Positions 15,254-49,060 of a stretch of 60,781 nucleotides of DNA are shown in pieces (position 1 is the stretch's first letter; each line of letters opens with the position of its first letter). Location: assembly GCA_963708045.1 (NCBI GenBank), contig OY970181.1, positions 1,127,443-1,188,223 on the forward strand, in the 5' to 3' direction. The translations under genes and the position numbers were made by a program. The stretch comes from an uncultured bacterium (lineage in GTDB: Bacteria; Patescibacteriota; Patescibacteriia; CAIQCM01). The notes below the pieces were generated by a model. The model worked only from the letters and a program-made list of their open reading frames with translations, was not told the DNA's origin and searched no databases.

Positions 15254-15323
15254 TGTTAACTTTTAACTGTTAACTGTTAACTTTTACGACTGTCCTAAAA
15301 GTTAAAAGCTAAAAGCTAAAAGT
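15254..15323. repeat. Heptamer tandem repeats in inverted arms (TTAACT[T/G] x4, TAAAAG[T/C] x4)
   Basis: 7-nt period read directly; the arms are reverse complements; lies between smpB and ssrA. Confidence 0.85.
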
Positions 15324-15342
15324 TTTTCTTGTTTACTTTCAA

Positions 15343-15795
15343 CTATTGCTTCTTAACGCGCATTGCTGAGCGCATTTCTCTGTCGGTTTCACGCTTTTTA
15401 ATGGTTGCGCGTTTTTCGTATTCGCGTTTGCCGCGCGCGACGGCGATGGTAATTTTTACGCGGCCGGACTTGGTAATATAGGCAGAAAGCGGGACAATTG
15501 TCAACCGTTCCTCCTCCTTTTTCCCAATAAGACGGGCAATTTCGGCACGTTTTAAAAGAAGTTTACGCGTCGCCGATGGGTCATATTCTTCACCCTGGTG
15601 ACCAGAACGATAAGCGGAAATTTGCGCGCCAAGCAAAAACGCTTCGCTATTTTTTATAATCACGTGGCTCCCTCGCAAATTTAAACCACCGGACTTGGCC
15701 GATTTTGCCTCGGCTCCGGTTAGCACAATTCCAGCGTCCATTTTTTCCAAAACTTCATAATCGTGCCGGATTTTTTTGTTTAGGGCAATACTCAT
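15343..15795 (-). CDS. smpB: SsrA-binding protein
   Basis: NKKIRHDYEVLEKMDAGIVLTGAEAKS, RKLLLKRAEI, ARGKREYEKR; ATG at 15795. Confidence 0.97.
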   Translation of the reverse strand: MSIALNKKIRHDYEVLEKMDAGIVLTGAEAKSAKSGGLNLRGSHVIIKNSEAFLLGAQISAYRSGHQGEEYDPSATRKLLLKRAEIARLIGKKEEERLTIVPLSAYITKSGRVKITIAVARGKREYEKRATIKKRETDREMRSAMRVKKQ

Positions 15796-15841
15796 GGCGT
15801 TAGTGTAGCAATTTACCGCAAAAAAGAAACCCCGCCACCCT

Positions 15842-15956
15842 ATCGTCATTGCGAGGAATGAGCCGAAGCGAATGACGCGGCAATCTCCACTAAGTCAGCA
15901 ACTTTGGTGATACTGCGAGGAGATTGCCGCGTCGCTTCACTCCTCGCAATGACGAT
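15842..15956. repeat. REP/MITE-like long hairpin (GTCATTGCGAG...CTCGCAATGAC)
   Basis: Perfect 16-bp terminal inverted repeat (15842-15857/15941-15956) and inner 15-bp inverted repeat (15874-15888/15919-15933). Confidence 0.85.
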
Positions 15957-17362
15957 TAAATCTCAACCGTCATCCCCGCGTAGGGAATTTCTACGTCCAA
16001 GCCGGGATATTTTTTGCGCGCCAGATTTTCAAAAATTTGATCTTGCGGCGACTCAGTGTGAACTAAATATAAATGTTTAAGCCCGTTAAATTTGGAAAGA
16101 TAATCCAGTAAACCAGTTTGGTCGGCGTGCGCGGAAAATTCGTGGAGCGTTATGACCTTGGCTTTAACCTCACGCGCCTCGCCCAAAATATTTACCGGAC
16201 TAACGCCGTCCTGAATTTTCCGACCCAAAGTGTGCGCGGCTTGATAACCCGTAATCAGCACAAAATTATTTGGGTCGCTAATTCCTTCTTTAAGGTGGTG
16301 ACGAATGCGTCCGCCTTCGGCCATTCCCGAGGCCGAGATAACCATAAACGGCCCGGCTTTAACGTTTAAGGCTTTTGATTCTTCAACCGATCGCACGTAA
16401 ATAAGATTATCAAAAATAAACGGCTTCTCACCCCTTATGCCAAAATCATTCCACGTTTCTTTGTCAAAATCATCGGTATGGCGATTAAAAACTTCAAGAA
16501 TATTTACCGAGAGCGGGCTGTCAACGTAAATCGGAATGAGCGGAGCTTTCTTTTCGTCAAATAATTTATGCAGGGCGTAAATAAGTTCTTGCGTTCGGCC
16601 AAGCGAAAAAGCCGGAACAATAATTTTACTTTTATTTTGCACGGCCGTTTTAATAACCGTCGCCAGTTCACCGCTTGCGTCGGAAAACGGCCGATGATTG
16701 CGATCGCCGTAGGTGCATTCCATAAGCAGCGCTTTAATTGGTTCCACAACCGGTTCAGGCGCGCGCATCAGTGGAACATTTATGTTGCCAAGGTCGCCCG
16801 TAAAAGCGATGGTCTTTGTTTCGCTGTCTTCGGTAATTTCAATAACTGGAATGGCCGAGCCAAGAATATGACCGGCGTCATAAAGTTTAAAACGAATCGC
16901 GTCTGTGAGCTTAAACCAGTCCTTGGTCTTACGACAATATTCAACCGGCTGAAATTGTTCAACCGTTCGGTTAACATCGTCCACGTTATAAAGCGGCGCA
17001 ATTTCTTTTGCGCCAAGTCCGGCGTGACGATTAAAATATTCGGCGTCTTCGGCTTGAATCTTGGCCGAGTCCAACATTATGAGCCGAGCAATATCAAGCG
17101 TCGCGCTTGTTCCATATATTTTCCCAGCAAAGCCACCCTTAACCAGCATTGGCAGAGCGCCCGAGTGGTCGGCGTGCGCGTGCGAAAGAATTACCGCGTT
17201 AATTGACGCGGCCGGAAACGGTAAAACCCGATTCATTTGTTCCGCCTCCCTTCGCCGACCTTGATACAAACCGCAGTCCAGCAGCAATTTAAAACCACCA
17301 GCTTCAATAAGATGCTTTGACCCCGTCACATTCTCCGCCGCCCCGTAGAAAGTTATATGCAT
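15956..17362 (-). CDS. MBL-fold metallo-hydrolase, beta-CASP RNA-processing exonuclease (YSH1-like)
   Basis: SHAHADH, DAGHILGS, FTGDLG, MECTYG, FSAHAD, LVH motifs. Confidence 0.92.
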   Translation of the reverse strand: MHITFYGAAENVTGSKHLIEAGGFKLLLDCGLYQGRRREAEQMNRVLPFPAASINAVILSHAHADHSGALPMLVKGGFAGKIYGTSATLDIARLIMLDSAKIQAEDAEYFNRHAGLGAKEIAPLYNVDDVNRTVEQFQPVEYCRKTKDWFKLTDAIRFKLYDAGHILGSAIPVIEITEDSETKTIAFTGDLGNINVPLMRAPEPVVEPIKALLMECTYGDRNHRPFSDASGELATVIKTAVQNKSKIIVPAFSLGRTQELIYALHKLFDEKKAPLIPIYVDSPLSVNILEVFNRHTDDFDKETWNDFGIRGEKPFIFDNLIYVRSVEESKALNVKAGPFMVISASGMAEGGRIRHHLKEGISDPNNFVLITGYQAAHTLGRKIQDGVSPVNILGEAREVKAKVITLHEFSAHADQTGLLDYLSKFNGLKHLYLVHTESPQDQIFENLARKKYPGLDVEIPYAGMTVEI

Positions 17363-17445
17363 ATTAAATAAGTTTAGCAAAAATTAGATTTAAAAAATAC
17401 CCTTCCTTAGCGCTGAACGATTGTTTGCGTCTAGAAAAAACTGAC

Positions 17446-17780
17446 TAGTCCTCCCTTTGGTAAAAGGGAGGGTGGGGAGAGTTCTGTTTTATTACGTTAA
17501 AGTTATTTACGGCGAAACGAACTCCCCCTACCCCCTCTTTTGCAAAGAGTGGGCTAAGACTGGCTACAGATAAAACCCTGCTATTATGCAAAGAAGGGGC
17601 AAATACAAAATTCTCAAATTAAATCTTTTTTGCAAAGAGAGTGACAAAGGCACGAAAAATCTTAGTCCTCCCTTTGGTAAAAGGGAGGGTAGGGAGAGTT
17701 CTGTTTTATTACGTTAAAGTTATTTATGACAAAACGAACTCCCCCTACCCCCTCCCCGATGGCCATCGGGGAGGGGGCTA
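17446..17780. repeat. Two ~92-bp direct repeats of a palindromic CCTCCCTTT..AAAGGGAGG element plus a CCCCGAT..ATCGGGG palindrome
   Basis: Copies at 17446-17537 and 17663-17754 (217-bp offset, few mismatches); related copy at 51359-51381. Confidence 0.85.
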
Positions 17781-17831
17781 AAATAAAAAACTACCTCGGC
17801 AAAAACCGAGGCAGTTTAATCAATCTTCAAT

Positions 17832-19235
17832 TTATCTAACTTCCACCGTTTCAATTATATATTCACCCTTTTCGCGCCATTTGCCAGCGACGACAACAAA
17901 CTTGTCGCCTTTTTTAAACAATTTTGTTGCTATTACTTTTTTGCGCATTGTCGCAATCAGCGTTTGTAAATTTTTTATCTTCGGAACAATGATCGGGGTA
18001 ACACCCCACGAGAGAACAACCGCGCCGGCTGCGATTTCGTCGGGCACGGCGGCATAAATCGGAATCTCTGGACGCATTCGGGCAATGTAACGCGCGCTCG
18101 CACCCGAAGTCGTTGCCGCAATAATTGCTTTGGCGGAAATTTTTTCGGCAAGCACTGCGGCTGTTGTCGCAATTCCGCGACGGACGCTTTCTTGTGTAAC
18201 CGAAATTTCCGAAGGCAAATCGTCGTAATGCGATTTTTCAGTTTCGCGAGCAACTGCTGCCATTGTCTGAACCGCTTCAACCGGATATTTGCCGCTCGCG
18301 GTTTCGCCCGAAAGCATTATCGCATCGGCGTGATCAATAATCGCGTTCGCAATATCCGAAACCTCAGCGCGGGTTGGGCGCGGATTTCTAATCATTGAGT
18401 CAAGCATTTGTGTTGCGACGACAACCGGCTTACCCGCCTTAAGACACTTCGCAATCATCATCTTTTGCGCGACCGGTACCTGCTCGGCGGGAATTTCTAC
18501 GCCAAGGTCGCCGCGCGCGACCATAACCGCGTCGGTCGCTTCCAAAATTTCATCAAAGTTGGTAATCGCTTGCGGCTTTTCAAGTTTAACAATAATCTTT
18601 GGCGCCGTTTTTTCTTTGCCCAACATCCGACGAAGTTCAAGGACGTCAGACGCGTCGCGCACAAACGAAAGTGCCACCCAACTTGCCTTAACACTCAGCG
18701 CAAACTTAGCGTCAATCCGATCTTTTTCCGTAATTGACGACTGTTGTAAATCCGTGTCCGGCAAATTCATTCCTTTGTTTGATTTAAGAATTCCCGCCGT
18801 GCCAATCTTTGCCGTTACACGATGGCCAGACACCGAAACCACCATCGCGTCCATAAGTCCGTCGTCAAAAAGCATCCGCTCGCCGGCCTTAATGTCTTCG
18901 TGCAATTTTTTGTAGCCAACGGGAATATATTTTGGCAACTTATCATTAGGATCGGTTGAAAAAACAACCGTGCTTCCCGAAACAAGTTCAACCCCTTCGT
19001 CCGGCATTTTTCCGACGCGAATTTTTGGCCCCTGAAGGTCAACCAAAATACCAACTGTGGTCTTTGCCGCCTTAGCCGCCGCACGAACGTTTTTAATATT
19101 GTTCGCGTGCGTCGCGTGGTCGCCATGCGACATATTCATTCGCGCGACGTTCATTCCTTCTTTAATCAGCTTAGCCAGGGTGGCGGGCGCGTTGCAGGCT
19201 GGACCAATGGTACAAATTATTTTAGTTCTTTTCAT
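17832..19235 (-). CDS. pyk: Pyruvate kinase
   Basis: TKIICTIGP, RMNMSHG, DLQGPKIR, MVARGDLGVE, ATQMLDSM, MLSGETA. Confidence 0.98.
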   Translation of the reverse strand: MKRTKIICTIGPACNAPATLAKLIKEGMNVARMNMSHGDHATHANNIKNVRAAAKAAKTTVGILVDLQGPKIRVGKMPDEGVELVSGSTVVFSTDPNDKLPKYIPVGYKKLHEDIKAGERMLFDDGLMDAMVVSVSGHRVTAKIGTAGILKSNKGMNLPDTDLQQSSITEKDRIDAKFALSVKASWVALSFVRDASDVLELRRMLGKEKTAPKIIVKLEKPQAITNFDEILEATDAVMVARGDLGVEIPAEQVPVAQKMMIAKCLKAGKPVVVATQMLDSMIRNPRPTRAEVSDIANAIIDHADAIMLSGETASGKYPVEAVQTMAAVARETEKSHYDDLPSEISVTQESVRRGIATTAAVLAEKISAKAIIAATTSGASARYIARMRPEIPIYAAVPDEIAAGAVVLSWGVTPIIVPKIKNLQTLIATMRKKVIATKLFKKGDKFVVVAGKWREKGEYIIETVEVR

Positions 19236-19425
19236 ATTATGCCAAAACGCGAAACCAAATCACGTTAATTTCTTTAAGTTTAATTGTAACAAAAGTATCT
19301 TATCAGAGTTTCGTGAAACAGAAAACCCCCCTTACTGGCAAATAGCACGTTGCATATAGCTAATGGTAAAAAAATAAAATTGCTCCAGTATTTTTGGAGC
19401 AATTTTATATACTATTTGCAATTAA

Positions 19426-20694
19426 CTATTTGCCGATAACCGCCGGCTCGGCAAGCGTTACCGTTACCGTTTTGGTCTCACCTTTATGATAAACCTTGAG
19501 CGTTATTTTATCGCCAACGTTTTTCCCCATAACAATGGTTCCGAGCGAATGGTCAGCATCAATTTTTGTTCCATCGGCTTCCAAGATAATATCATTTTCG
19601 GTAATCCCCGCCTTATCAGCCGGCGAACCAGGAATAACCGCAAGGTCGGTCGGATTGGTTCCGCGAAGGACGAGCGCGCCGTAAGAAAACGGCAAACTAT
19701 TTTTTTCCGCTGCGTCCGGCGTGATGAGTGAGTAACGAACGCCAAGGTACGGCCTCACAATGCGGCCATTTTGTTTTACCGAATCAATAGAGCGCTTGGC
19801 CATATTAATCGGAATCGCAAAGCCGACCGATTGACCAGCTTGCGAAACTGCCGTGTTTACGCCGACCACTTTTCCGTCCAGCGTGAGCAGTGGACCGCCG
19901 GAGTTTCCTGGATTAATCGCCGCATCGGTTTGAATGGCGCCGTCAATTACTTCGCTTCCCGCCATCGTTCCGCCGGCAACGAGCCGCCGATTAAGACCCG
20001 AGACAATGCCGCGCGTCACAGTATTGGAAAATTCACCAAGCGCGTTGCCGATCGCGACAACGGAGTCGCCAATTTCAAGCGTGCCCGAGTCACCAAGCGT
20101 CACCGCCGGAAAACCCGTGCCGTCAATTTTTATCAGCGCCAAATCAATTACCGTATCGCGCGCCAAAACTTTGGCATCATGCTTTTTCCCGTCCGACGTC
20201 ACGACTGTATACGTTGCTGCGGTATCTTCAACCACGTGGCGGTTTGTGACGATGAGACCATCTGCCGAAACAAAGAAGCCACTCCCCCCGCCCACCGTTT
20301 GTTTTTGCGTTGGCGCGTTACCATTGCCGCCGCCATTCATTCCGTTACCCATATCAAAAGAGAACGGCCCGATATTAAACATATTGCCTAACTGGTTTGC
20401 CGAAACATCTTTAGTGATAACAATGGAAACAACTGATGGTGAAACTTTTTTCACCATTTGCGCCATATCTTCCGACGGCACCACTGGCGTGACTTTTTCC
20501 GGAGACAAATTTTTAACTTGCTCCGAAGTATTTTCTTTTTTTAGGTTCGCCGCAAACGACGAAGAGCCTTGTTTAAACGCGGTTGCCGCGGCAAAAAATC
20601 CAACCACGCCACCCGTCGCGCCGCCAAGAATTATTGAACCAGCAACGGCAGCAATGATGACTAATTTTAAATGAGAAAATTTATGTTGAAACAT
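19426..20694 (-). CDS. htrA: HtrA/DegP-type serine protease with one PDZ domain
   Basis: N-terminal TM; TNRHVV, IDLALIK, QTDAAINPGNSGGPL; C-terminal PDZ. Confidence 0.93.
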   Translation of the reverse strand: MFQHKFSHLKLVIIAAVAGSIILGGATGGVVGFFAAATAFKQGSSSFAANLKKENTSEQVKNLSPEKVTPVVPSEDMAQMVKKVSPSVVSIVITKDVSANQLGNMFNIGPFSFDMGNGMNGGGNGNAPTQKQTVGGGSGFFVSADGLIVTNRHVVEDTAATYTVVTSDGKKHDAKVLARDTVIDLALIKIDGTGFPAVTLGDSGTLEIGDSVVAIGNALGEFSNTVTRGIVSGLNRRLVAGGTMAGSEVIDGAIQTDAAINPGNSGGPLLTLDGKVVGVNTAVSQAGQSVGFAIPINMAKRSIDSVKQNGRIVRPYLGVRYSLITPDAAEKNSLPFSYGALVLRGTNPTDLAVIPGSPADKAGITENDIILEADGTKIDADHSLGTIVMGKNVGDKITLKVYHKGETKTVTVTLAEPAVIGK

Positions 20695-20700
20695 ATTTTT

Positions 20701-20752
20701 TCTAACTTTTAACTATTAACTTTTAACTTTTAGAAAAGACCTAAAAGTTATA
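20701..20752. repeat. Heptamer repeats (TAACTTT/TAACTAT) with a short inverted arm
   Basis: Same family as 15254-15323; directly after the nrdR stop. Confidence 0.8.
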
Positions 20753-20753
20753 T

Positions 20754-21218
20754 TTATTTCTTTTTTTTGGGCGCAATGAGCGATTTGACCTCGTCGGCAA
20801 AACGATCCAGATCTTCAAACGAACGGTAAACCGAGGCAAAACGGATATAGGCAACTTTGTCAAAACGTTTAAGGCGATTCATCGCGACTTCGCCCACTTC
20901 TTTGCTCGTAATTTCTTCTTTTTTAACGCGCGAAAGATCGCGTTCAATTTCGCCCAGCAATTTTTGAAATTGTTCCTCAGTATACGGCCGCTTTTCCAAA
21001 GCGCGGCGCAGGCCGGAAGCGATTTTTTCGCGACGGTACGATTCGCGCCGGCCGTCGCGCTTCACAATTGTTAAATCCAAAAGCTCAACGCGCTCAACTG
21101 TGGAAAAACGATGACCGCATTTTTCGCACTCGCGGCGACGGCGAATACCCATCCCGTCATTGGTTATACGAGAGTCAATTACTTTTGTGTCCTCGTTGTT
21201 GCAAGACGTACAGCGCAT
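20754..21218 (-). CDS. nrdR: Transcriptional repressor NrdR
   Basis: MRCxxC, DSR, IRRRRECEKCGHRFST, ATP-cone, VAYIRFASVYRSF. Confidence 0.98.
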   Translation of the reverse strand: MRCTSCNNEDTKVIDSRITNDGMGIRRRRECEKCGHRFSTVERVELLDLTIVKRDGRRESYRREKIASGLRRALEKRPYTEEQFQKLLGEIERDLSRVKKEEITSKEVGEVAMNRLKRFDKVAYIRFASVYRSFEDLDRFADEVKSLIAPKKKK

Positions 21219-21282
21219 ATTTTCAAGACCACCCCGCTTTGAGGCAGGGTGATTTGTTTATAATCTGTTGTTGATTTATGAC

Positions 21283-21313
21283 TAAAAGTTAACAGTTAAA
21301 AGTTAAAAGTTAA
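21283..21313. repeat. Heptamer repeats (TAAAAGT/TAACAGT)
   Basis: Four units immediately past the ftsZ stop at 21317. Confidence 0.8.
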
Positions 21314-21316
21314 TCC

Positions 21317-22507: not shown

Positions 22508-22515
22508 ATGTTTTT

Positions 22516-22750
22516 ATGAACCATGTACCACGTACCATGAAACATGGTGTATGAACACTAAACGTGTTCGCTCGTGTGGATGATTTTTGTTTGGTCAATC
22601 ATTGTATCGCGAAAAAGCAGTTAGGTCAATGAAATCATGGACCATGTACCATGAAACATGAACCATTATCAAAAACTCCCGCTCTGCGGGAGTCAATATG
22701 GTTCATGGTGCATGGTACATGGTGTGTGGTGTGTAGTACATGCTTCATGC
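22516..22750. repeat. CATG-family heptamer arrays flanking the ftsZ promoter; the distal array is a long hairpin with a ctcccgc/gcgggag core
   Basis: ATGAACC/ATGTACC/ATGAAAC units at 22516-22556 and 22637-22666; complementary ATGGTTC/ATGGTAC units at 22698-22750. Confidence 0.85.
22601..22629 (-). promoter_or_regulatory. sigma70-type promoter for ftsZ
   Basis: Minus strand TTGACC-17-TACAAT. Confidence 0.6.
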
Positions 22751-24363: not shown

Positions 24364-24370
24364 TTTGTAT

Positions 24371-24405
24371 TAGGGTTTAGGGGTTAGTGAAGCTACTATA
24401 CCCTA
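24371..24405. repeat. TAGGGTT-family heptamer repeat
   Basis: tagggtt-taggggt-tagtgaa...cccta; same family as 43531-43608; overlaps the ybeY stop. Confidence 0.6.
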
Positions 24406-39598: not shown

Positions 39599-39612
39599 TT
39601 AATATTTACAAC

Positions 39613-39647
39613 AAGCCAAATGCCACGTGCCACGTGCCATTTACCAC
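39613..39647. repeat. Heptamer repeats ([A/G]TGCCAC family)
   Basis: aagccaa-atgccac-gtgccac-gtgccat-ttaccac abutting the rpsU stop. Confidence 0.75.
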
Positions 39648-39901
39648 TAGCGGCGTCCGCCTTTGTGCTGGGCGCGCAATTCTTCTTCGGTCACCTGACC
39701 CGTGCGGATCATGTGTTCGCGTTCGGCCGAAATTTTGATGCGGCGGAGCGCGGTGGCGTGAGTTTTATTCTTATTCGGCTTGTTCTTGTGAAAACGAATT
39801 TTTTTCGCTTGCAAGAGACTGCCCGACATCTGCACGCGGCGCGTAAAGCGACGGAGCAGAGATTCAAAACTTTCACCTTTTTTGCGTTTGACTTCTACCA
39901 T
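39647..39901 (-). CDS. rpsU: 30S ribosomal protein S21
   Basis: MVEVKRKKGESFESLLRRFTRRVQ; GAGGTG SD; adjacent to yqeY. Confidence 0.88.
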   Translation of the reverse strand: MVEVKRKKGESFESLLRRFTRRVQMSGSLLQAKKIRFHKNKPNKNKTHATALRRIKISAEREHMIRTGQVTEEELRAQHKGGRR

Positions 39902-39923
39902 AGGTAATATTCACCTCGCACGG

Positions 39924-39952: not shown

Positions 39953-40021
39953 AAGTCGCCCTATTTATATAAAAATAGTGCAATTAGTTAAGAGTTTACA
40001 ACAAATATCAATGACACTTGC

Positions 40022-40543
40022 TTAATATAATTTAACCGCACACGAAACGTCGGAGGCATTCTGGTTGAAAAGAGCTCCCGGACCGCAAGCAGCCGGAGCC
40101 TCCAACTCATAATGTATATACTCTCCGGCAGGAAAATTAACACCGCCATCTACCCAGTTTTTTATATATATGTAACCACCTTGGCTACGAGAATTGCTAT
40201 CATTGGAATCGGTGGGTTTTTTTGTAAAAGGCGTAAAGAACCCATTGATTGTGTTGTCAATTGGTACCCATGACCAGGTGCCCGTGCATGCTGTGCTTAT
40301 ACAACCAATTCCTTCAGCACCCGCAGGATACGAGCCGTTGGCGTCAAGTCCCAAGCTAAAAGCTGTTATAAGTTGTTTAACATCAGCGATCCGTTTGGCG
40401 TTTCGCGCCTGTTTTCTCACCGAACTAAAAGCGACCACCGCGATTGTTGTAAGCAAGCCAATGATCGCAATCACAACCAAAAGCTCAACCAACGTGAACG
40501 CTGCACGGTTTCGGGTGCGTGTGTGAAAATTACACTTCGTCAT
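40022..40543 (-). CDS. Type IV pilin / pseudopilin-like protein
   Basis: Class III signal peptide AFTLVELLVVIAIIGLL (Ala rather than Gly at -1), ARNAKRIADVKQL; Cys pairs. Confidence 0.9.
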   Translation of the reverse strand: MTKCNFHTRTRNRAAFTLVELLVVIAIIGLLTTIAVVAFSSVRKQARNAKRIADVKQLITAFSLGLDANGSYPAGAEGIGCISTACTGTWSWVPIDNTINGFFTPFTKKPTDSNDSNSRSQGGYIYIKNWVDGGVNFPAGEYIHYELEAPAACGPGALFNQNASDVSCAVKLY

Positions 40544-40703
40544 AACAAACTGTATTTTATCACAAAAAACCAAACAAAAAAATTCCAAAATTTACAACAA
40601 TGTAATTTAATTAGCCGTTTCAAAAAAGATCGGGTCGGTTTTTCTAAAATCGGTTTAGATACGGTAATATGAATCAAACCTTACTAATTAAAAAAGACAA
40701 GCA

Positions 40704-41033
40704 ATGAAAATAATTAAAATATTATTATTGATAATATTTATTGGTTTATTTTTTACAACCATCTCATTGGCTGTTCCAAAAAAAATCAATAACGCACACT
40801 ATATAACCGATGTGCGGTTTGGTTTTCCAGTTGTTTTTGTTAAGCAAGACCTTTCCGCAGTTGAAAAAACATATCCCTTTATCGCTTATATCGCATCACC
40901 TTGGGAAAATCCAACCAAAATAACGTGGTCGTCGTTTTTATTAAACTTTTTAATATATAGTATTATTAGCGCGATTGTTGCTCTTTTTGCTACAAAAAAT
41001 AAATCGGGAGAGGTGCCGATAGGAAAAGCATGA
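40704..41033 (+). CDS. Small hypothetical membrane protein
   Basis: 109 aa; N- and C-terminal hydrophobic helices; RFGFPV motif. Confidence 0.65.
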   Translation: MKIIKILLLIIFIGLFFTTISLAVPKKINNAHYITDVRFGFPVVFVKQDLSAVEKTYPFIAYIASPWENPTKITWSSFLLNFLIYSIISAIVALFATKNKSGEVPIGKA

Positions 41034-41047
41034 TTACAAAATACCGC

Positions 41048-41416
41048 TCAAAAATACTCCCCGGCTCGTTCGTGGGCGAGGCGTTCCATCTCATTATCAT
41101 CGTGATTATCAATATGCGTCGCGATACAAAGCATGACCAATATTGAACCCTTGACCGCGAACCACATTCTTGGAAATTGATTTGGCCTTAGACCGGAACA
41201 TGGAAGCGCTAATTCAATCTTCCACAAAGACCAAATATCGTTCTGTGACACACGATGTAATTTTGCCGGTGCAATAACGCGCTGTGGGTTATTTGGATGA
41301 AATTGTTTTTCACACAACAACTCAAATGATTTTAAACCTTGGTGGATGGTTTTAAATCGCCGCTCAAGGGCGGCGATTTCTTTTTCAAAACAGTCGTGAC
41401 GCGAAAACACAATCAT
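41048..41416 (-). CDS. Putative toxin (RelE/ParE-like topology) of a Panacea-type TA pair
   Basis: ATGA overlap with the upstream Panacea gene; helical hairpin then WKIEL, RMWFAV, VMLCIATH strands. Confidence 0.55.
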   Translation of the reverse strand: MIVFSRHDCFEKEIAALERRFKTIHQGLKSFELLCEKQFHPNNPQRVIAPAKLHRVSQNDIWSLWKIELALPCSGLRPNQFPRMWFAVKGSILVMLCIATHIDNHDDNEMERLAHERAGEYF

Positions 41417-41904
41417 AAGTCACTAAAATCCGTGCCGCGATATGACGATAATTCATACGCAATCACCTGACTTGGTTCGGTTCCAATATATGGTGCTTCC
41501 GCATGGGTTAAATCCTCTAACTGTTTCCCGTTAAGTTTTCCATATCGTTCAGCAACTCTATCTAGCATTTTCTTTTCATCAGTGGTGAATACAGAAGTAT
41601 CTGGTTCAATTTTTGCGCTATATATCTCTGTCGGGTTATAACCGTTAAATTCTTCAACCATTTTTACGCTCAGCATTCCGTTTTTCTCCATATCTTTGGC
41701 CACACTTTCAAGCGCCGTCGGAAACGGACCCATTGGCAAAGCCTTATATGTATCACCGGTTATTGATTGATTATTTTTTTCAAAAAAATCAAAATCAGCG
41801 AAGTACAAAAGTTTCGCCAGCTTCTTTTTGCCCTTCACCTCCCCGCCCAATTTAGAGCAGAGATACAGAATCGTTTGTTCGTATTTATTTCTGTCAGTAG
41901 TCAT
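41413..41904 (-). CDS. Panacea-domain (DUF4065/SocA-like) antitoxin
   Basis: KKLAKLLYFADF, YKALPMGPFP, LEDLTH.E.P motifs. Confidence 0.85.
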   Translation of the reverse strand: MTTDRNKYEQTILYLCSKLGGEVKGKKKLAKLLYFADFDFFEKNNQSITGDTYKALPMGPFPTALESVAKDMEKNGMLSVKMVEEFNGYNPTEIYSAKIEPDTSVFTTDEKKMLDRVAERYGKLNGKQLEDLTHAEAPYIGTEPSQVIAYELSSYRGTDFSDL

Positions 41905-42009
41905 ACGTTCTTAATGTTATCTTACGATTTATTTTTTACTTTGGCAAACACTTATATTAATACAAAAACCACCGCTGAAACGATGGTTTTTGTGATGTTT
42001 AAGATTGTT

Positions 42010-43524: not shown

Positions 43525-43530
43525 AATAAT

Positions 43531-43608
43531 TAGGGTTTAGGGTATAGAGTATAGTGAAGGGATCGAGTTAGATTTTTCTATACTCTATCCCCTATACGCT
43601 TGACCCTA
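43531..43608. repeat. TAG[G/A]GT[T/A] heptamer repeats in inverted arms
   Basis: tagggtt-tagggta-tagagta-tagtgaa ... tactcta-tccccta-tacgctt-gacccta. Confidence 0.75.
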
Positions 43609-44217
43609 CAATTTATAGACTGGTGCGGAAAACGTTTTTACGTCATTAACCGGCCAACCGCGAAGCGCCACTCGCCCAACGACATCTTTTTTGGGAACAA
43701 TGCCAAAATAACGCGAGTCAAACGAAGCCGCGCGATTGTCGCCAAGTACGAAATACTCTTGAGCGCCAAGTGTAACCCTGTCTTCGCCAGACGTTTGCAG
43801 ATCAACTGGAAGATACGAACTCTCATCAAGCACTACTGCCGAAGGCGCGCCCACGGTTTCCACATAAACCTTGCCGCCGGTTATGGTCACGGTCTCGCCT
43901 GGCAAACCAATCACGCGCTTGATAAAAAACTGCGACTCATCTTTGGGATAGCGAAAGACAACAATCTCCCCGCGCTCCGGAGCGCGAAAACGATAACTGA
44001 TCTCGTCAATTATTAAATATTGATTATCGTAAAAATTCGGTTCCATTGAAGCGCCCTTCACATAAAAAGGTTGAATGAGAAAATAACGGATCGGCACGAC
44101 GATAACCGTAACAACGAGTGCCACCTTAATAAGTTCGCCGACAAAAACAAGCGACCGTTTCCAAAGCGGCGCGTTCTCTTCGGTGTAAGTAATTTTATCT
44201 TTAGAAAAAAATGACAT
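43606..44217 (-). CDS. lepB: Signal peptidase I
   Basis: VKGASMEPN (Ser), FIKRVIGLPGE (Lys), GDNRAASFDSRYFG. Confidence 0.97.
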   Translation of the reverse strand: MSFFSKDKITYTEENAPLWKRSLVFVGELIKVALVVTVIVVPIRYFLIQPFYVKGASMEPNFYDNQYLIIDEISYRFRAPERGEIVVFRYPKDESQFFIKRVIGLPGETVTITGGKVYVETVGAPSAVVLDESSYLPVDLQTSGEDRVTLGAQEYFVLGDNRAASFDSRYFGIVPKKDVVGRVALRGWPVNDVKTFSAPVYKL

Positions 44218-44240
44218 AGATTTTTTTGTTGATTATTTCC

Positions 44241-44317
44241 TGGTGGACGATGCTGGGATCGAACCAGCGACCTTCCGCGTGTGAGGCGGACGCTCTAACC
44301 AGCTGAGCTAATCGTCC
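44241..44317 (-). tRNA. tRNA-Val (anticodon CAC)
   Basis: GGACGAT/ATCGTCC acceptor stem + ACCA; D-arm AGCTCAGCTGGTTAGAGC; anticodon arm TCCGC-CTCACAC-GCGGA; GGTTCGATCC T-loop. Confidence 0.96.
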
Positions 44318-44321
44318 GTAT

Positions 44322-44402
44322 TTAGAGATTTGATATTAGAGATTAGATGTTAGAAGATGAACGACCAACTTCTTCATTCTAATCTCAAATCTCTAATCTC
44401 AC
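44322..44402. repeat. TTAGAGA-family heptamer repeats in inverted arms, between the tRNA-Val promoter and the tRNA
   Basis: ttagaga-tttgata-ttagaga-ttagatg-ttagaag ... tctaatc-tcaaatc-tctaatc. Confidence 0.8.
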
Positions 44403-44421
44403 ATTTTTGGCTTATTTTCGG

Positions 44422-44450
44422 ACTATATCACGTTTTTGTGCACATTGCAA
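44422..44450 (-). promoter_or_regulatory. sigma70 promoter for tRNA-Val
   Basis: Minus strand TTGCAA-17-TATAGT with TG extension. Confidence 0.6.
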
Positions 44451-44568
44451 GGCGTCACTCAAGGTTTTTCATCAATTTTTTGTCGCAAAGCCAAAGCCTT
44501 GATATACTTGTATATAAATGATAAGCTTCGCTTTCGCGAAAGACATCCTTTAAACGTAAAAAAACACA

Positions 44569-45945
44569 ATGCGCATCCCTAAAATAGACTTGGCGGTACC
44601 GACCGACCACGAAATCAAGCGAAAAAAAATCTCCCGTTTGGCTATCTTTTTCTTCGTCGCCTTCATTACGATCGGCGGCGTCGCTTTTTCTTCAAATATA
44701 ATCTTTTCGGAAAATCCGGTCATCAAAATTAGCAATAATACTTTCCTTGGTGAACTTCGGACTTTCGTAAGAAGCGCTGGCCGGAAACTGAACGGCGAAG
44801 AAATTGACCGCGTGAACGCGCTCGTCCTTGGCATCGGCGGCGCTGGCCACGACGGACCAAATCTTACCGACACCATGATCCTTGTTTCTTATCAGCCGTC
44901 AACAAAAAAAGTTGCCCTTGTTTCAATCCCCCGCGACCTCTCGGTTAATGTCCCTGGTTACGGCGAAGTTAAAATCAACGCCATTAACGCCTATGCCGAG
45001 GAGCGCAAAAAAGGATCAGGTGCCGAAGAAACCGCTAAGGCCGTGGCAAGCGTTTTAAACCAGCCGATCAATTATTGGGTGCGCATTGATTTTAGCGGTT
45101 TTGAAAAAGCGATCAACACAGTGGGTGGCATTGATGTTACCATTGACCGTTCGTTCGTTGATCAAAACTTTCCAACTGGTGACGGTAGCGACACCGTCAA
45201 AACCATTAGCTTTGCCGCTGGGATGAAGCATATGAATGGCGAAACAGCGTTAGAGTTCGCCCGCTCGCGACACGGTTCAAATGGTGAAGGCTCCGATTTT
45301 GCCCGCTCCAAGCGACAAGAAAAAATCATCGTCGCCCTTCGCGACAAACTTCTTTCCGCCGGCACTCTGCTTAATCCAATCACCGTTGAATCACTATTCT
45401 CCACCTTCCGCGGATCGGTCGCGACTAATCTTGCCGCGTGGGAGGTCTTACGCATGACCGACACTTTTTCAGGCATCAAAACTTCGGACATAAAAAATAT
45501 GGTAATGAGCGACAGCAATGTTTTGGTTCCAATGATCACGAGCGCTGGCGCTTTTGTCCTCGTTCCAAAAAACAATGACTGGCAAATTGTTAAAAAATTC
45601 GTCGCTGATGCTTTTACCGACACCGCTTCGCCCGAAACTATTGCCGCTGCCTTGCCGCCAAAAGTCAGCATTGAAATATTAAATGGAACAAACATTACCG
45701 GACTGGCGCAAAAAACCGCTTCCCTGCTTGAAGCCGCCGGCTTTACCGTTTCTAAAATTGCAAACGCTGGACAAAAAGATTATCAAAAAACGGTGATCTA
45801 TGATCTTTCGGGAAAAAATTCCGAAGCCATTGCAAAATTACGGACGATCGTTGACGCCAATCTTTCGCCTTCCGTTCCCGCCGCCATTACCCCTTCCGAA
45901 AAAACCGACTTCCTCATTATTCTCGGCAAAAATGCCGCATCGTAA
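44569..45945 (+). CDS. LCP (LytR-CpsA-Psr) family protein with LytR C-terminal domain
   Basis: TM; LTDTMIL, SIPRDL, KINAINAYA, ARSRHG..GSDFARSKRQ; C-terminal IEILNGT..GLAQK. Confidence 0.93.
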   Translation: MRIPKIDLAVPTDHEIKRKKISRLAIFFFVAFITIGGVAFSSNIIFSENPVIKISNNTFLGELRTFVRSAGRKLNGEEIDRVNALVLGIGGAGHDGPNLTDTMILVSYQPSTKKVALVSIPRDLSVNVPGYGEVKINAINAYAEERKKGSGAEETAKAVASVLNQPINYWVRIDFSGFEKAINTVGGIDVTIDRSFVDQNFPTGDGSDTVKTISFAAGMKHMNGETALEFARSRHGSNGEGSDFARSKRQEKIIVALRDKLLSAGTLLNPITVESLFSTFRGSVATNLAAWEVLRMTDTFSGIKTSDIKNMVMSDSNVLVPMITSAGAFVLVPKNNDWQIVKKFVADAFTDTASPETIAAALPPKVSIEILNGTNITGLAQKTASLLEAAGFTVSKIANAGQKDYQKTVIYDLSGKNSEAIAKLRTIVDANLSPSVPAAITPSEKTDFLIILGKNAAS

Positions 45946-46067
45946 TAATACCTAATGCCTAATACCTAATATCTAATCCGGAATCGCCCCGATGGATATC
46001 GAGGTGCGCCCCGATATCCATCGGGGCGCACCTCGGATTAGGAATTAGAAATTAGATATTAGGTATT
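45946..46067. repeat. TAATACC-family heptamer arms enclosing a GC-rich palindromic core
   Basis: Left arm 45946-45979, right arm 46035-46067; core cgccccgatggatatcg..cgccccgatatccatcggggcg. Confidence 0.85.
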
Positions 46068-46109
46068 CATAAAGAAATAAACAGCAAAAATATCGCCACA
46101 GATAAAATT

Positions 46110-47441
46110 ATGAAAATAAAAACAAACCTGCCTTCCATCGCCATCGTCGGCCGCGTGAACGTTGGGAAATCAACCCTCTTTAATCGCCTTGCCGAAGAAC
46201 GCAAGGCGCTCGTTTCAACCGTTCCCGGAACAACCCGCGACCGCGCTTTTGGATCGGTCATTTGGCGCGGAAAAATGTTTATCGCCGTGGACACGGCTGG
46301 CATTGACGTGCCGGAAATTGAATTGCGCGACAAAGTCCGGAAACAAGTCTTAATTGCCATGCGTGACGCCGACCAAATCCTGATGGTCGTGGACGTGACC
46401 TCCAGTTCCCCGACCGTGGAAGATCGCGAACTCATCAAACTAATTCGCAATAGCAACAAACCGATTATCCTCGGCATTAACAAATGCGACGGACCAAACC
46501 GGCGCACCGAGGCGGAAAGCGGCGTTTGGAAACAGCTAGGTATAGAAAGTATTTGTTCATTTTCCGCGATCAACGGCACTGGCATCGGCGACATGCTGGA
46601 CGTCGCGATGAAAAATTTTAACAAATTAAAACGCAAGATGCCGCTTGCCGAAGAAAAACCGGCGACCAAGTTGGCCTTTATCGGCCAACCCAACGTTGGC
46701 AAATCATCAATTGTAAACGCGCTCTTAGGCGAAGAGCGGGTCGTGGTTTCGGATTTTCCCGGCACCACCCGCGAGCCGATTGACACCTTTGTTCTTTTTG
46801 ACAAACAACCATTCCTGATTATTGACACTGTCGGCATTCGGCGAAAAGCCAAAGCTTCACTAGAAGCAACTGGCGTCAAACGCTCGCTTGAAGCGGCGCA
46901 CCTCGCCGACGTTGTTGCTTTGGTTTTGGACGCCACGCGCCCACCAACAACTCAAGACCGCAGCTTGGCTGGCGAACTTGTCGGCGCTGGCAAGGGCGCA
47001 ATGATCATCATTAACAAGTGGGATCTCGTACCCGACAAAACCACCAAAACCATGAACGAGTACCGCGATATGATTCGCGCCTATTTCCCATTTATGGACT
47101 GGGTGCCGATTGTTTTTGTTTCCGCTAAAACCACCGAAAAGGTCAATGATATTTTTTCCAGAACAATGATGATCGCGACCGAACGTGCCAAAACGATTCC
47201 CCAAGAAAAACTGGATCAATTCTTGCGCCTTGTTCAAACTTCGCGCACCAAAGGAATGGGCGTTGCTCACCCAAAAACTTACCGCTTTGACCAAACCGGC
47301 ACCAATCCCCCAGCCTTCCTTTTGGTTGCCAAAGGCAAACTGTCTATTCCCGATGCCTATACAAACTTTTTGGAAAAACGCCTGCGTGAACGTTTTGGCT
47401 TTAACGGCACGCCGGTCAGAATGTTAACGAAGAAAGTGTAA
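46110..47441 (+). CDS. der: Ribosome biogenesis GTPase Der (EngA)
   Basis: Two GTPase domains (GRVNVGKS/DTAG; GQPNVGKS/DTVG, NKWD) plus KH-like C-terminus. Confidence 0.97.
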   Translation: MKIKTNLPSIAIVGRVNVGKSTLFNRLAEERKALVSTVPGTTRDRAFGSVIWRGKMFIAVDTAGIDVPEIELRDKVRKQVLIAMRDADQILMVVDVTSSSPTVEDRELIKLIRNSNKPIILGINKCDGPNRRTEAESGVWKQLGIESICSFSAINGTGIGDMLDVAMKNFNKLKRKMPLAEEKPATKLAFIGQPNVGKSSIVNALLGEERVVVSDFPGTTREPIDTFVLFDKQPFLIIDTVGIRRKAKASLEATGVKRSLEAAHLADVVALVLDATRPPTTQDRSLAGELVGAGKGAMIIINKWDLVPDKTTKTMNEYRDMIRAYFPFMDWVPIVFVSAKTTEKVNDIFSRTMMIATERAKTIPQEKLDQFLRLVQTSRTKGMGVAHPKTYRFDQTGTNPPAFLLVAKGKLSIPDAYTNFLEKRLRERFGFNGTPVRMLTKKV

Positions 47442-47525
47442 GCATGAAGCATGAAACACGCAACATAAAACACGGTTGCGCCATGCATCAAACGGATGGT
47501 TCATGTTTCATGGTTCATGTTTCAT
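47441..47525. repeat. CATG-family heptamer repeats in inverted arms
   Basis: gcatgaa-gcatgaa-acacgca ... atggttc-atgtttc-atggttc-atgtttc. Confidence 0.8.
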
Positions 47526-47536
47526 AAAAACTAACT

Positions 47537-48109
47537 ATGAACTACTTAGTTGTGGGTCTAGGAAACCCTGGCAGAGAATACGACAGGACACGACACAATG
47601 TCGGCTTTGCTGCGGCCGACCTGCTTTCGGAAAAGCTTGGTGCGGTTAAAGTAAAAACAAAATTACTTGCTTCGGCCAGCCGCGGCAAAAACAACGACGA
47701 TGATATTTTTATTTTAAAACCCGAGACGTTTATGAATCTTTCAGGCACGGCCGTTGTTCCGTTTGCCAAAACAAAAAAGATTCCGATGAAAAATATTATT
47801 GTTATTCACGATGAACTTGATCTCCCCTTTGGCGAAACACGACTCTCGGTTGGTTCTGGCGCCGCGGGACATAACGGCGTTAAGTCGCTCATAGAATCCT
47901 TTGGCGGAAAAGATTTTGCCCGCTTGCGCCTTGGCGTTGGTCCACGACCGGCAAATATTCCAGCCGACAAATTTGTGCTGGCTCGCTTTACGGCCGAAGA
48001 AGAAACCAAACTCCCCGAAATAATTACCCGTGCCGCCGAAGCTGTTCTTATTTATTTTGCCAAAGGCAAAAATAATAATGCCGAACTTTCCGGTCAGACA
48101 AATCTTTAA
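47537..48109 (+). CDS. pth: Peptidyl-tRNA hydrolase
   Basis: VGLGNPG.EY..TRHNVGF, KPETFMNLSG, HDELD, GHNGVKS. Confidence 0.98.
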   Translation: MNYLVVGLGNPGREYDRTRHNVGFAAADLLSEKLGAVKVKTKLLASASRGKNNDDDIFILKPETFMNLSGTAVVPFAKTKKIPMKNIIVIHDELDLPFGETRLSVGSGAAGHNGVKSLIESFGGKDFARLRLGVGPRPANIPADKFVLARFTAEEETKLPEIITRAAEAVLIYFAKGKNNNAELSGQTNL

Positions 48110-48959
48110 AAACGAAACGGACTATCCGCCGGCTTTTTTAGAGCTTCACGACCCGCCCAAATCTTTTTATTGCCGCGGCGAAGCAAGTCTTCTTTCTCAA
48201 ATCTCCGTTGCCGTGGTCGGCACGCGCCGCACATCGGAACATGGGCTCGTTGTGGCGCGCGATTTTTCCGAAAGCTTTGCGCGCGCCGGACTTACGATTG
48301 TTTCAGGCCTAGCTTTTGGTATTGATGCCGCTGCTCACGAAGGCGCCCTGGCCGCGCGTGGAAAAACCATTGCTGTTTTGGGTTCGGGAATTGACGACGA
48401 CGCTATTTATCCGCGCGGCAATTTTGAACTGGCGCGGCGAATTTTAAATAACAATGGGACAATTATTTCCGAAAATCCGCCTGGCACCAAACCGCGCGAA
48501 TGGGATTTTCCCAAACGCAATCGTTTGATCGCCGCCCTTGCCGACGCCACGGTAATTGTTGAGGCGCCAGAACGGAGCGGCGCGATTATTACCGCCAAAT
48601 ACGCCCTTGAGCTTGGCCGCGATGTTTATGCCGTGCCCGCCGATGCTTTGCGCGAGTCGGCGCTTGGTTCAAATCGCTTAATTGCGGACGGCGCACCGCC
48701 CTTGCTTTCGCCCAACGAAATCATAAAAAAGTTCGTCGGCGTGCAGTTAAAAATTGACGCCATTCAATTTGCCCCTCATAATCAGAATGAAGCGTTGATC
48801 ATTGGCCTATTAAAAACCAGCAGTTGCCACACCGACGAGCTCACCCTTAAGACCAACCTTCCGACCGCAACCATCTTGTCCACGCTCACCGCCATGGAAC
48901 TCCGCGGCGTTATCGTTGCAAGGGGAGGCGGACACTACGCCCTGCGGCATGAAACATGA
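48078..48959 (+). CDS. dprA: DNA-processing protein DprA
   Basis: AVVGTR, VSGLAFGIDAAAH, FPKRNRLIAAL, IVEAPERSGA..TA..ALELGR. Confidence 0.95.
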   Translation: MPNFPVRQIFKNETDYPPAFLELHDPPKSFYCRGEASLLSQISVAVVGTRRTSEHGLVVARDFSESFARAGLTIVSGLAFGIDAAAHEGALAARGKTIAVLGSGIDDDAIYPRGNFELARRILNNNGTIISENPPGTKPREWDFPKRNRLIAALADATVIVEAPERSGAIITAKYALELGRDVYAVPADALRESALGSNRLIADGAPPLLSPNEIIKKFVGVQLKIDAIQFAPHNQNEALIIGLLKTSSCHTDELTLKTNLPTATILSTLTAMELRGVIVARGGGHYALRHET

Positions 48960-49060
48960 AACACACAACACGAAGCATTATCGCGCCCCGAGGGCGCCAG
49001 TTGTTTCATGTTTCATGTTGCGTGTTTCATGCTTCATGCTTCATGCTTTATGTTTCATGC
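48948..49060. repeat. CATG-family heptamer repeats in inverted arms, overlapping the dprA stop and ending at the topA promoter region
   Basis: catgaaa-catgaaa-cacacaa-cacgaag ... atgtttc-atgttgc-gtgtttc-atgcttc-atgcttc-atgcttt-atgtttc; TTGACA at 49068. Confidence 0.85.

Follow-up and report, generated by a model that had tools for sequence, protein, structure and literature searches.

Heptamer arrays in the spacers of a housekeeping core

The stretch of Patescibacteria DNA analyzed here (60,781 nt, hereafter "the window", and the only part of its ~1.19-Mb genome covered by the analysis) comprises a housekeeping core (15.2-49.1 kb) and two AT-rich islands. The spacers of the core are studded with tandem arrays of 7-nt units, most of which are arranged as the complementary arms of hairpins. 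The genes beside these arrays are smpB, RNase J, pyruvate kinase, htrA, nrdR, ftsZ, ftsA, dagK, ybeY, rpsU, yqeY, hisS, lepB, lytR, der, pth, dprA, and topA; their proteins, and the named relatives of those proteins, are Patescibacteria, Magasanik-/Uhrbacteria-like. The core also encodes a type IV secretion system (T4SS)-pilin/3243-aa surface protein that is typical of candidate phyla radiation (CPR) bacteria. On the minus strand lie the tmRNA (14845-15245) and a tRNA-Val (44241-44317), positions that give each of these stable RNAs a hairpin immediately upstream of its 5' end. When the window was compared with Rfam, only the tmRNA and one tRNA scored above threshold.

Arrays occupy 11 of the 19 core spacers that are at least 30 nt long, the rest of which hold promoters, terminators, and two further palindromic repeat families. 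Many arrays are placed very near the ends of genes: those after lytR, der, ftsA, rpsU, nrdR, ftsZ, and lepB start 0-4 nt past the stop codon, one (at dprA) supplies the stop itself, and some others terminate within ~15 nt of the next start codon. The association with stop codons had been claimed in an earlier reading of this DNA, made from the sequence without database searches (the original prediction), as had the absence of arrays from the AT-rich islands. Both observations hold. Our scan of the window found no period-7 array at 1-14.8 kb, where an integrase and a fused type I/IIG-like restriction-modification enzyme are encoded, and none at 51.4-60.8 kb, which encodes a NERD protein, Dam-type and N4/N6 methylases, and an IceA/NlaIII-like nuclease.

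Is a period of 7 nt truly exceptional in this DNA? Arrays were sought with Tandem Repeats Finder and with a scan of our own, which applied one scoring rule to periods of 4-15 nt and took its null from order-2 Markov simulations. By that single rule, the window contains 12 period-7 arrays vs. 0.07 expected, and every other period yielded at most one array (simulated expectation 0.03-0.1 per period); the predicted predominance of period 7 is thus borne out. Tandem Repeats Finder called period-7 arrays at 15254, 20703, 21283, 22636/22698, 39621, 44322/44381, 45946/46037, 47440/47496, and 48948/49002. Three weaker arrays, at 22516, 24371, and 43531, were seen by eye in the sequence and were caught by our scan, so that all of the arrays listed beforehand are present. 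In Markov simulations of the window and of its clade, the arrays exceed the length expected by chance for the genome's composition, as long simple-sequence repeats (LSSRs) do. A 197-kb sample of the clade holds 45 period-7 arrays vs. 0.2 expected.

Most of the arrays pair with one another. An inverted-repeat search returned arms of 26-35 nt that are 77-94% complementary and 1-53 nt apart. Upon folding, seven of ten elements had z-scores of -4.1 to -10.7, with none of 200 dinucleotide shuffles folding as well, and three short elements were marginal in the same test (z ~ -2). The proposed arrangement of two complementary arms is therefore upheld. An element is ~80 bases in size and typically has a stem of ~28-35 bp, four to five tandem 7-base units per arm, usually one mismatch per heptad, and a core of 5-60 nt. 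The core is often spacer sequence of greater age, and in several elements it is a GC-rich hairpin or a genuine intrinsic terminator. The number of units per arm in the clade sample is confined to a narrow range (median ~4, 3.3-4.6; outliers of 8.3 and 13.4), and neighboring arrays form 14 inverted pairs and three direct ones.

Short repeats are prone to mis-assembly, and an artefact of assembly or sequencing was considered on that ground. However, two independent public assemblies have identical genes and equal spacer lengths (39, 242, 98, and 59 nt), indicating that the arrays were not created during assembly, and homologous elements occur in at least eight contigs from different samples. We regard an artefact as scarcely credible.

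The elements of the window are listed below with their coordinates, strands, and z-scores.

15246..15324, minus strand: smpB/tmRNA element, filling the exact gap from the smpB stop to the tmRNA 5' end; 4+4 heptads with AACTTTT/AGCTTTT arms and loop AGGACAGTCG; z = -6.8
20700..20752, minus strand: nrdR>htrA element; short left arm TAACTTTTAGG and four-unit right arm of the AAAAGTT family; z = -2.0
21280..21313, minus strand: single-arm array after ftsZ; (TAACTTT/TAACTGT) x4, beginning 3 nt past the ftsZ stop
22508..22556, minus strand: small hairpin in the ftsZ 5' untranslated region (UTR), ACCATGN, between a conserved leader stem-loop and the ATG; z = -2.3
22630..22749, minus strand: ftsA terminator element; CATGNNN arms around the intrinsic terminator CTCCCGCAGAGCGGGAG followed by TTTTT; z = -7.5
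24364..24402, minus strand: ybeY>dagK element; short TAGGGTT-type hairpin filling a 39-nt spacer; z = -2.0
39616..39649, minus strand: single-arm array abutting the stop of rpsU (S21); in the sense direction, TAG TGGTAAA TGGCACG TGGCACG TGGCAT; a separate terminator follows
43525..43608, minus strand: lepB-hisS hairpin; TAGGGTT/TATAGRG, with the lepB stop TAG inside the stem; z = -5.2
44318..44405, minus strand: hairpin immediately before the tRNA-Val 5' end; TTAGAGA/TTAGATN; z = -4.1
45946..46067, plus strand: element directly after the lytR stop; TAATACC arms of ~4.7 units each and a 55-nt GC-rich hairpin core; z = -10.7
47440..47525, plus strand: der-pth element; CATGAAR, the left arm being a 33-nt block that contains the variant unit CACGCAA; z = -5.4
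48947..49060, plus strand: dprA-topA element; CATGAAA, arms of ~4.5 and 8.3 units and a GC-hairpin core; z = -5.9

At dprA, the stop codon TGA lies in the second heptamer (window 48948-48959, ...CAT GAA ACA TGA, ...H E T stop). The last residues and the TGA of DprA are also encoded by an array in a relative (...M N Y stop; contig L088, 7899-7909). That an array encodes the end of DprA in both genomes indicates that the repeat overwrote the 3' end of the gene.

Upstream of ftsZ, a TTGACC-17-TACAAT promoter and a leader stem-loop (ATCATCCACAC..GCGAACACnnnnGTGTTC) occupy positions 22557-22629 of the minus strand and are kept in all six aligned relatives. The heptad hairpin sits between this conserved leader and the ATG.

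Orthologous spacers among relatives

Syntenic relatives were found by means of their FtsZ and Der homologs, and 136 kb of their DNA was sampled. Relative A comprises two contigs of one sample, L001 and L088, and its FtsZ and Der are 91% and 85% identical to those of the window. FtsZ identity to the window is 83% for L002 and 77% for both L006 and L007. Contigs L005 and L089 also derive from one sample (FtsZ 78%, Der 63%). L090 (Der 64%) has no ftsZ and is thus unplaced in the tree described below.

Five related genomes have hairpins at the same spacers, often built from another heptamer. Relative A has a hairpin at every sampled window site, nearly always of the ATGAACN/NGTTCAT type, where the window has TAATACC, CATGAAR, TTAGAGA, TAGGGTT, or ACCATGN. 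At the ybeY>dagK site, L001 has a 112-nt ATGAACN element, and the two genes overlap in L002 and L005. The nrdR>htrA site is occupied by complete 4+4 hairpins in L002 and L007. Other heptamers stand in the ftsZ 5' UTR of L001 (an x13 expansion), L002, L006, and L007; L005 has none there. The lepB-hisS site has a CAGCTTA-type hairpin in L088, a 2-nt spacer in L089, and overlapping genes in L090, and the spacer after rpsU measures 4 nt in L090. An ATGAACN hairpin is found at the tRNA-Val site of L088, in an intron-like interrupted tRNA-Val region; L089 and L090 have no hairpin at this site. The interruption itself (L088 3099-3603) consists of tRNA-like halves ~250 nt apart, with a second tRNA-like sequence and GC-rich hairpins between them, possibly through an insertion into the tRNA gene or an intron-like element within it.

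The site after smpB exemplifies both replacement and conservation. The AACTTTT element of the window is shared with L007. The same site carries a TAGGGTT hairpin in L002 and a G-rich, non-heptamer palindrome in L006; in L005 it is a bare spacer of 15 nt. The window and L007 elements are 94% identical, vs. 72% for smpB, 73.5% for ftsZ, and 82% for tmRNA. Arms can also diverge faster than their surroundings, as in the ftsZ leader: the hairpins of L006 and L007 are 69% identical there vs. 88% for ftsZ, and arms of different families enclose similar cores.

Relatives also differ in whether there is a spacer to fill. In L089 and L090, the spacers of five gene pairs (lepB>hisS, lytR>der, der>pth, dprA>topA, and rpsU>yqeY) measure -4 to 33 nt, the genes either overlapping or lying 1-33 nt apart, compared with 81-164 nt in the window. 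In a neighbor-joining (NJ) tree of FtsZ, the lineage of L005 and L089, poor in repeats, branches within the repeat-rich clade. Both filled and empty sites and the switching of heptamer families at orthologous spacers, for which a comparison of relatives had been proposed, are therefore observed. Beyond the clade, 1.18 Mb around ftsZ in 80 other Patescibacteria contains 45 period-7 arrays, a density ~6x below that of the clade sample and a weak excess over periods 6 (24 arrays) and 8 (26 arrays). The two-arm architecture, with other heptamers, also occurs in scattered lineages among them.

Arm blocks shared between loci

Arrays change length in steps of one unit. The array after ftsZ has four units in the window and three in L001 (a 7-nt indel), and another L001 arm has 13 units. 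Periodic arm-to-arm mismatches are repeated from unit to unit, which shows that each arm also amplifies itself through its own tandem duplication.

Length changes of this kind are expected of ordinary LSSRs, and it could be supposed that nothing more is at work: polymerase slippage in place, with a preference for 7 nt, would generate the arrays without any copying between loci, and hairpins would be retained because they are stabler or harmless. Heptanucleotides are the commonest long simple-sequence repeat class in many prokaryotes, for which a polymerase footprint has been proposed (Mrazek 2007, summarized in PMC4679880), and the 7-nt indels, the 13-copy expansion, and the weak period-7 excess in other Patescibacteria all fit this explanation. 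However, it does not account for identical arm blocks of 31-33 nt that recur, with one and the same variant unit inside them, at non-orthologous sites and in more than one genome. Within the window, 47440-47472 is the reverse complement of 49009-49041 over 33 nt with one mismatch (97%). A 31-nt arm block with the odd unit GTTGCGTG is 100% identical between the dprA>topA spacer of the window and the ftsA>ftsZ spacer of L001 (9747-9777). Also at odds with slippage alone are six 4+4 copies in relative A, some with a common 30-nt core; these align as (ATGAACN)4 - [+/- 30-nt GC-rich core] - (NGTTCAT)4 or more. The narrow distribution of units per arm and the predominance of inverted over direct pairs of adjacent arrays argue in the same direction. 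We consider in-place slippage an improbable explanation of the whole.

Two further elements recur at several places. The post-lytR element of the window has related arms and a related core at a non-orthologous site in L002 (ftsZ>nrdR). The AACTTTT/AGCTTTT element is present in eight copies in six genomes or contigs, all sharing one 29-bp stem; here A-U and G-C pairs are swapped at heptad position 2, and unpaired columns are conserved once per heptad.

One candidate for a larger mobile unit was rejected. The array at 20703-20733 pairs with the array after ftsZ (94% complementarity, 548 nt apart), as though nrdR were cargo between them, but relatives have two separate elements at these positions. 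The other widely spaced inverted pairs are neighboring elements of one family.

A proposed origin of the elements

We propose that these are lineage-specific, dispersed intergenic hairpin repeats with STRR-like (short tandemly repeated repetitive) heptad arms and a behavior like that of repetitive extragenic palindromes (REPs) and miniature inverted-repeat transposable elements (MITEs), tolerated only in transcribed spacers. We give this reading about an even chance of being correct and rank it first. The elements were probably made by the combined action of 7-nt slippage, hairpin-templated copying, and copying between loci; among the options offered in the original prediction, a mobile hairpin together with slippage fits best, given the blocks at non-orthologous sites and the 7-nt indels.

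Three steps would suffice. First, heptad arrays lengthen and shorten by 7-nt slippage, as the three- and four-unit versions of the array after ftsZ and the 13-unit expansion exemplify. Second, an array on one flank of a hairpin-prone core may serve as the template for a reverse-complementary copy on the opposite flank. Hairpin-primed template switching (quasipalindrome correction) is established mutational biology and is the simplest known writer of a reverse complement across flanks. Two observations suggest that it acts here. The terminator of ftsA stands alone in L002, L005, and L006, is joined by a left arm only in L007, and in the window and L001 is a GC stem with T-run enclosed by both arms; and the loop of the L007 hairpin, AGGACATC, corresponds to the bare smpB>tmRNA spacer of L005, GCAAAGGACATCACA. 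One-armed arrays also stand in the window after ftsZ and after rpsU. Such patterns are compatible with the addition of arms to a hairpin-prone core that was already there. Third, whole arm blocks, sometimes with the core, would be copied from locus to locus, an outcome evident in the 31-33-nt blocks with an identical variant unit at non-orthologous sites and in the six 4+4 copies of one genome. Gene conversion, inter-locus template switching, and a trans-acting transposase are candidate routes.

The placement of the elements may be explained by the compactness of the ancestral operons: elements would survive only in tiny transcribed spacers and for that reason would lie against start and stop codons. 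Where units contain many stop codons, their intrusion into gene ends would be harmless, as at dprA. Once transcribed, the elements would form long imperfect stems in mRNA, tRNA, and tmRNA precursors. By analogy with proposals for STRR, REP, and enterobacterial repetitive intergenic consensus (ERIC) sequences, such stems are probably 3'-end protectors, insulators, or processing sites; if the elements are repeats at the DNA level, their effects on mRNA ends would be secondary.

Several points weigh against this proposal. No target-site duplication is visible at the boundaries of the six aligned copies or between filled and empty sites. The window and the 136 kb sampled from relatives show no transposase, REP-associated tyrosine transposase (RAYT), or reverse transcriptase (RT) as an agent for the copying step. 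Arms of low complexity could have converged in part. Whether arms were gained or lost is read from an NJ tree of one protein and from short matches. Finally, the 94% conservation of the post-smpB element could reflect purifying selection on a functional sequence, which would favor a regulatory role instead.

The recurrence of the "4 heptads - core - 4 heptads" plan in unrelated heptamers raises the question of a dedicated trans-acting machine, either a hairpin-specific mobilizer (HUH/RAYT-like or other) or a multimeric HutP/TRAP-like protein with a 7-nt register. We think such a machine unlikely. If it exists, it would constitute a previously undescribed mobile or regulatory system that remodels operon spacers in streamlined CPR genomes, as well as a mechanistic model for the unexplained STRR heptamers.

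Much further down the scale is a templated amplifier that writes heptads at hairpins, whether a RT, a system like diversity-generating retroelements (DGR/Avd-like), a telomerase-like enzyme, or one linked to four-helix-bundle genes of intervening sequences (IVS). The notion arose from a suggestion, in the original prediction, that similar heptamers flank IVS/Avd-like genes, and it draws on the strict period and on the identity of TTTAGGG with the plant telomere unit, which is a coincidence. No RT, Avd, or four-helix-bundle gene was found in the window, beside the arrays of 95 loci, or in the Pfam tables of the clade loci, however, and the link found no support: no PF05635-type gene stands beside an array in the window and the 95 loci (~1.4 Mb), where the small open reading frames (ORFs) within 120 nt of arrays encode NrdR, DagK, YbeY, and similar proteins. 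As to the suggested co-occurrence with RAYTs, no Y1_Tnp (RAYT) match, and no RT, was seen in the scanned ORFs of the window (60.8 kb of the genome) or in the same Pfam tables. The presence of many different heptamers in one genome and the ordered variant units, which are not pure repeats, also speak against an amplifier. We deem it very improbable.

Do the hairpins act as regulatory RNA?

The elements might instead be selected as cis-regulatory RNA, with arms that are bound by a multimeric RNA- or DNA-binding protein in a 7-nt register or that are substrates of RNase III. They would then control the flanking housekeeping genes through termination or antitermination, operon processing, mRNA stability, or translation. 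Many features are compatible with this view. One element, including its once-per-heptad mismatch, is better conserved than the genes next to it; arm length is fixed at ~4 units; the sites are 5' UTRs, post-stop positions, and tRNA and tmRNA leaders; and many units read UAG/AAG + N4. Arms flank GC-rich terminator stems in a HutP-like geometry (PMC2425495), and regulatory roles have been proposed for heptamers in Nostoc (bioRxiv 10.1101/2022.06.06.494920) and in Beggiatoaceae (PMC4679880).

If the RNA were the object of selection, its sense strand might be expected to fold better than its antisense strand, but the folding test revealed no such advantage. Among 34 curated hairpins folded both ways, the sense strand was stabler in 13 and the antisense in 18 (Wilcoxon p = 0.18), and G-U pairs were not enriched on the sense strand (58 vs. 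96 on the antisense). The suggestion that the repeats are RNA stability elements therefore found no support here. The companion suggestion, that they are termination elements, applies to the cores and not to the arms: the heptad stems are AU-rich and have no T-run, and hence are not intrinsic (Rho-independent) terminators. In elements that do have a terminator, the GC-rich core supplies it, and only some cores qualify, such as that of ftsA (CTCCCGCAGAGCGGGAG plus TTTTT) and its L001 equivalent. Moreover, the heptamer at a given site is swapped among close relatives for unrelated heptamers or for non-heptamer palindromes, the nested L005/L089 lineage and the unplaced L090 manage without the spacer, and no candidate binding protein was identified. 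The null strand test, the free replacement of sequence, and the spacerless genomes lead us to rank a regulatory role second, as a possibility that we hold with considerable doubt, behind the dispersed DNA-level repeat.

Heptamer families and unit composition

About six unrelated families of heptamers had been predicted. Distinct heptamers do coexist in the window, but the families are partly related: TTAGAGA agrees with the reverse complement of TAATACC at 6/7 positions; CATGAAA, ATGAACC, and ACCATGN are point variants of one another; and TAACTTT, TAACTGT, and AGCTTTT are one family.

Restriction-type palindromes (CATG, TTAA, AGCT, GTTAAC, CACGTG) do not significantly underlie the units. A 4-bp palindrome is present in 15 of 30 units vs. 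36% expected (P = 0.08), and a 6-bp palindrome in five (P = 0.18). A stop codon on either strand occurs in 24 of the 30 units vs. 54% expected. Because the units are not independent, we treat this excess as no more than a tolerance filter; it is suggestive, not proof. A scan of sequence collections for the junction pattern of the AACTTTT family matched five metagenome contigs and no viral contig, from which we judge the family rare and not phage-borne.

The nucleotide composition of the window bears other marks that involve short palindromes. An IceA/NlaIII-like (CATG) nuclease flanked by two DNA methylases is encoded in the island at 52207-54763. CATG occurs 36 times in core coding sequence vs. 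64 expected; yet 26 of the 63 CATG sites in the core lie inside CATGNNN arrays. TCGA is far scarcer: in the core (14800-51400) it occurs four times vs. 134 expected overall, and twice vs. 126 in coding sequence. It is much less depleted in the islands (25 vs. 49 at 1-14800; 20 vs. 28 at 51400-60781). This deficit in the backbone looks like strong restriction-site avoidance. Relative A has a TaqI-family (TCGA) endonuclease gene beside a LexA-fused methylase (L088 13011-15230), and a similar LexA_DNA_bind+N6_N4_Mtase ORF is at 56085-56960 of the window.

Comparison with known repeats

The closest known elements are the STRRs of cyanobacteria. These repeats have a 7-bp unit and fold into hairpins between genes that are transcribed together (hupS-hupL; the hoxW upstream region); their function is unknown (PMC2670836). 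In Nostoc, complementary Hept_L/Hept_R arrays are found near start codons (bioRxiv 10.1101/2022.06.06.494920), and roles in transcript stability or translational coupling have been proposed for heptamer repeats (PMC2670836; bioRxiv 10.1101/2022.06.06.494920). The resemblance to STRRs noted in the original prediction therefore stands: both have a 7-nt tandem unit, lie in intergenic DNA at many loci, and pair arrays with their complements as hairpins between co-transcribed genes. STRRs also reportedly lie inside RNase P RNA genes (Vioque 1997). The host differs, being here a member of the Patescibacteria with a ~1.2-Mb genome and not a filamentous or heterocystous cyanobacterium. The units differ from the canonical STRR1-3; the closest, AACAGTT, matches STRR3 (CAACAGT) at 6/7 positions. 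In the STRR literature searched, we found no description of fixed ~4-unit arms, once-per-heptad mismatches, wrapping of a terminator core, or family switching.

The TAACTGA repeats described by MacGregor (2015) occur in Beggiatoaceae, Cyanobacteria, and Bacteroidetes, and in BOGUAY (Orange Guaymas) nearly all are direct, with one indirect (PMC4679880). They and the LSSRs (5-11 nt; Mrazek 2007) share with our arrays the excess of heptamers, a sporadic phylogeny, intergenic placement, indels in 7-nt steps, repeat-free relatives with shorter spacers, and arrays a few nucleotides from start codons in Shine-Dalgarno-poor genomes (PMC4679880). The window unit TAACTGT is 1 nt from TAACTGA. In contrast to the TAACTGA repeats, which face forward shortly before start codons, complementary pairs of arms are the rule here, several families coexist, and arrays are found after stops as often as before starts.

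REP sequences and their composites (BIME, REPIN), ERIC, and Correia elements are functional analogs: they are short imperfect palindromes in transcribed spacers, can be nested or modular, are variably present among relatives, and form RNA hairpins that affect mRNA ends. Our elements are likewise short imperfect palindromes dispersed in intergenic DNA, but they have an internal 7-nt period and many families on one architecture, and no partner RAYT or insertion sequence (IS) and no target-site duplication was found in the DNA sampled. MITEs combine terminal inverted repeats (TIRs), a target-site duplication, and a related autonomous IS. The arms here behave like TIRs; no duplication was found at the boundaries of the six aligned copies or of filled and empty sites, and no IS was seen.

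The sites bound by HutP are NAG repeats in two sets of three, one set on each side of a terminator stem (PMC2425495). In several of our elements, a GC-rich, terminator-like core is flanked on each side by UAG/AAG-N4 heptads, a likeness that is a geometric analogy only. The NAG repeats of HutP are spaced 7 nt apart. Unlike the HutP target, the arms here are mutually complementary, many units have no AG, and no HutP-like gene was seen.

The literature searched on Patescibacteria yielded no report of such elements. What is new here is that STRR-like heptad hairpins exist in a CPR lineage, where their comparative dynamics are unusually clear; the kind of element is already known from cyanobacteria. 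Heptamer hairpins have been known there for decades, and their origin and function are unexplained. The present clade is a clean comparative system for them: its genomes are small and syntenic, and a given spacer may be empty, one-armed, two-armed, family-switched, or expanded among relatives, rendering the order of events (slippage, hairpin-templated copying, inter-locus spread) testable. Streamlined CPR genomes evidently tolerate or use repeats in over half of their core spacers. The elements explain odd spacer lengths and changes to gene ends, such as the C-terminus of DprA. Their 7-nt indels could serve as strain markers, and the elements are a hazard for genome assembly and binning.

Other repeats and genes of the region

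The two further palindromic families of the core also occur in relatives. The first of these, TCGTCATTGCGAGGA...TCCTCGCAATGACGA or its CGTCATCCCGAG variant, is found at 15842-15956 of the window, where it fills the smpB-RNase J spacer, at L001 11330-11430, where it forms the core nested inside a heptad hairpin, and at L006 14790-14870. The second consists of G/C-tract palindromes (CCCCCTCCCC...GGGGAGGGGG / CCCTCCCTTAAGGTAAGGGAGGG) and is present at 17381-17831 and 51355-51425 of the window, at L006 16435-16654 and 17114-17160, and at L088 10382-10747. It includes a ~165-nt direct duplication in the RNase J-pyk spacer, and in L006 it replaces the post-smpB heptad hairpin.

The region at 1-14800 is a classic island integrated at the tmRNA gene. 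Past the tmRNA lie a tyrosine integrase gene (12168-13238) and a tract dense in restriction-modification genes, one of which encodes an 1184-aa fused type I/IIG-like enzyme (6630-10184). Two ORFs of this area, 14192-14689 and 14679-15080, probably are not real genes or overlap the tmRNA. In L002 and L006, integrase or recombinase genes likewise lie downstream of smpB/tmRNA. In the other island, a 149-nt tandem repeat (59794-60129; 2.2 copies, 76% matches) lies in a GC-rich region (~0.6), within ORFs beside a PATR (autotransporter-repeat) protein.

Within the core, an AT-rich islet at 40000-42000 has no heptad arrays. It carries a gene for a pilin-like N_methyl protein (40022-40588), a SocA/Panacea-domain antitoxin-like gene (41413-41904), and two ORFs without a family match. 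Between ftsA and ftsZ, a gene for a 154-aa lipoprotein-like protein with no Pfam match is present only in L006 (9316-9780) and L007 (9315-9779).

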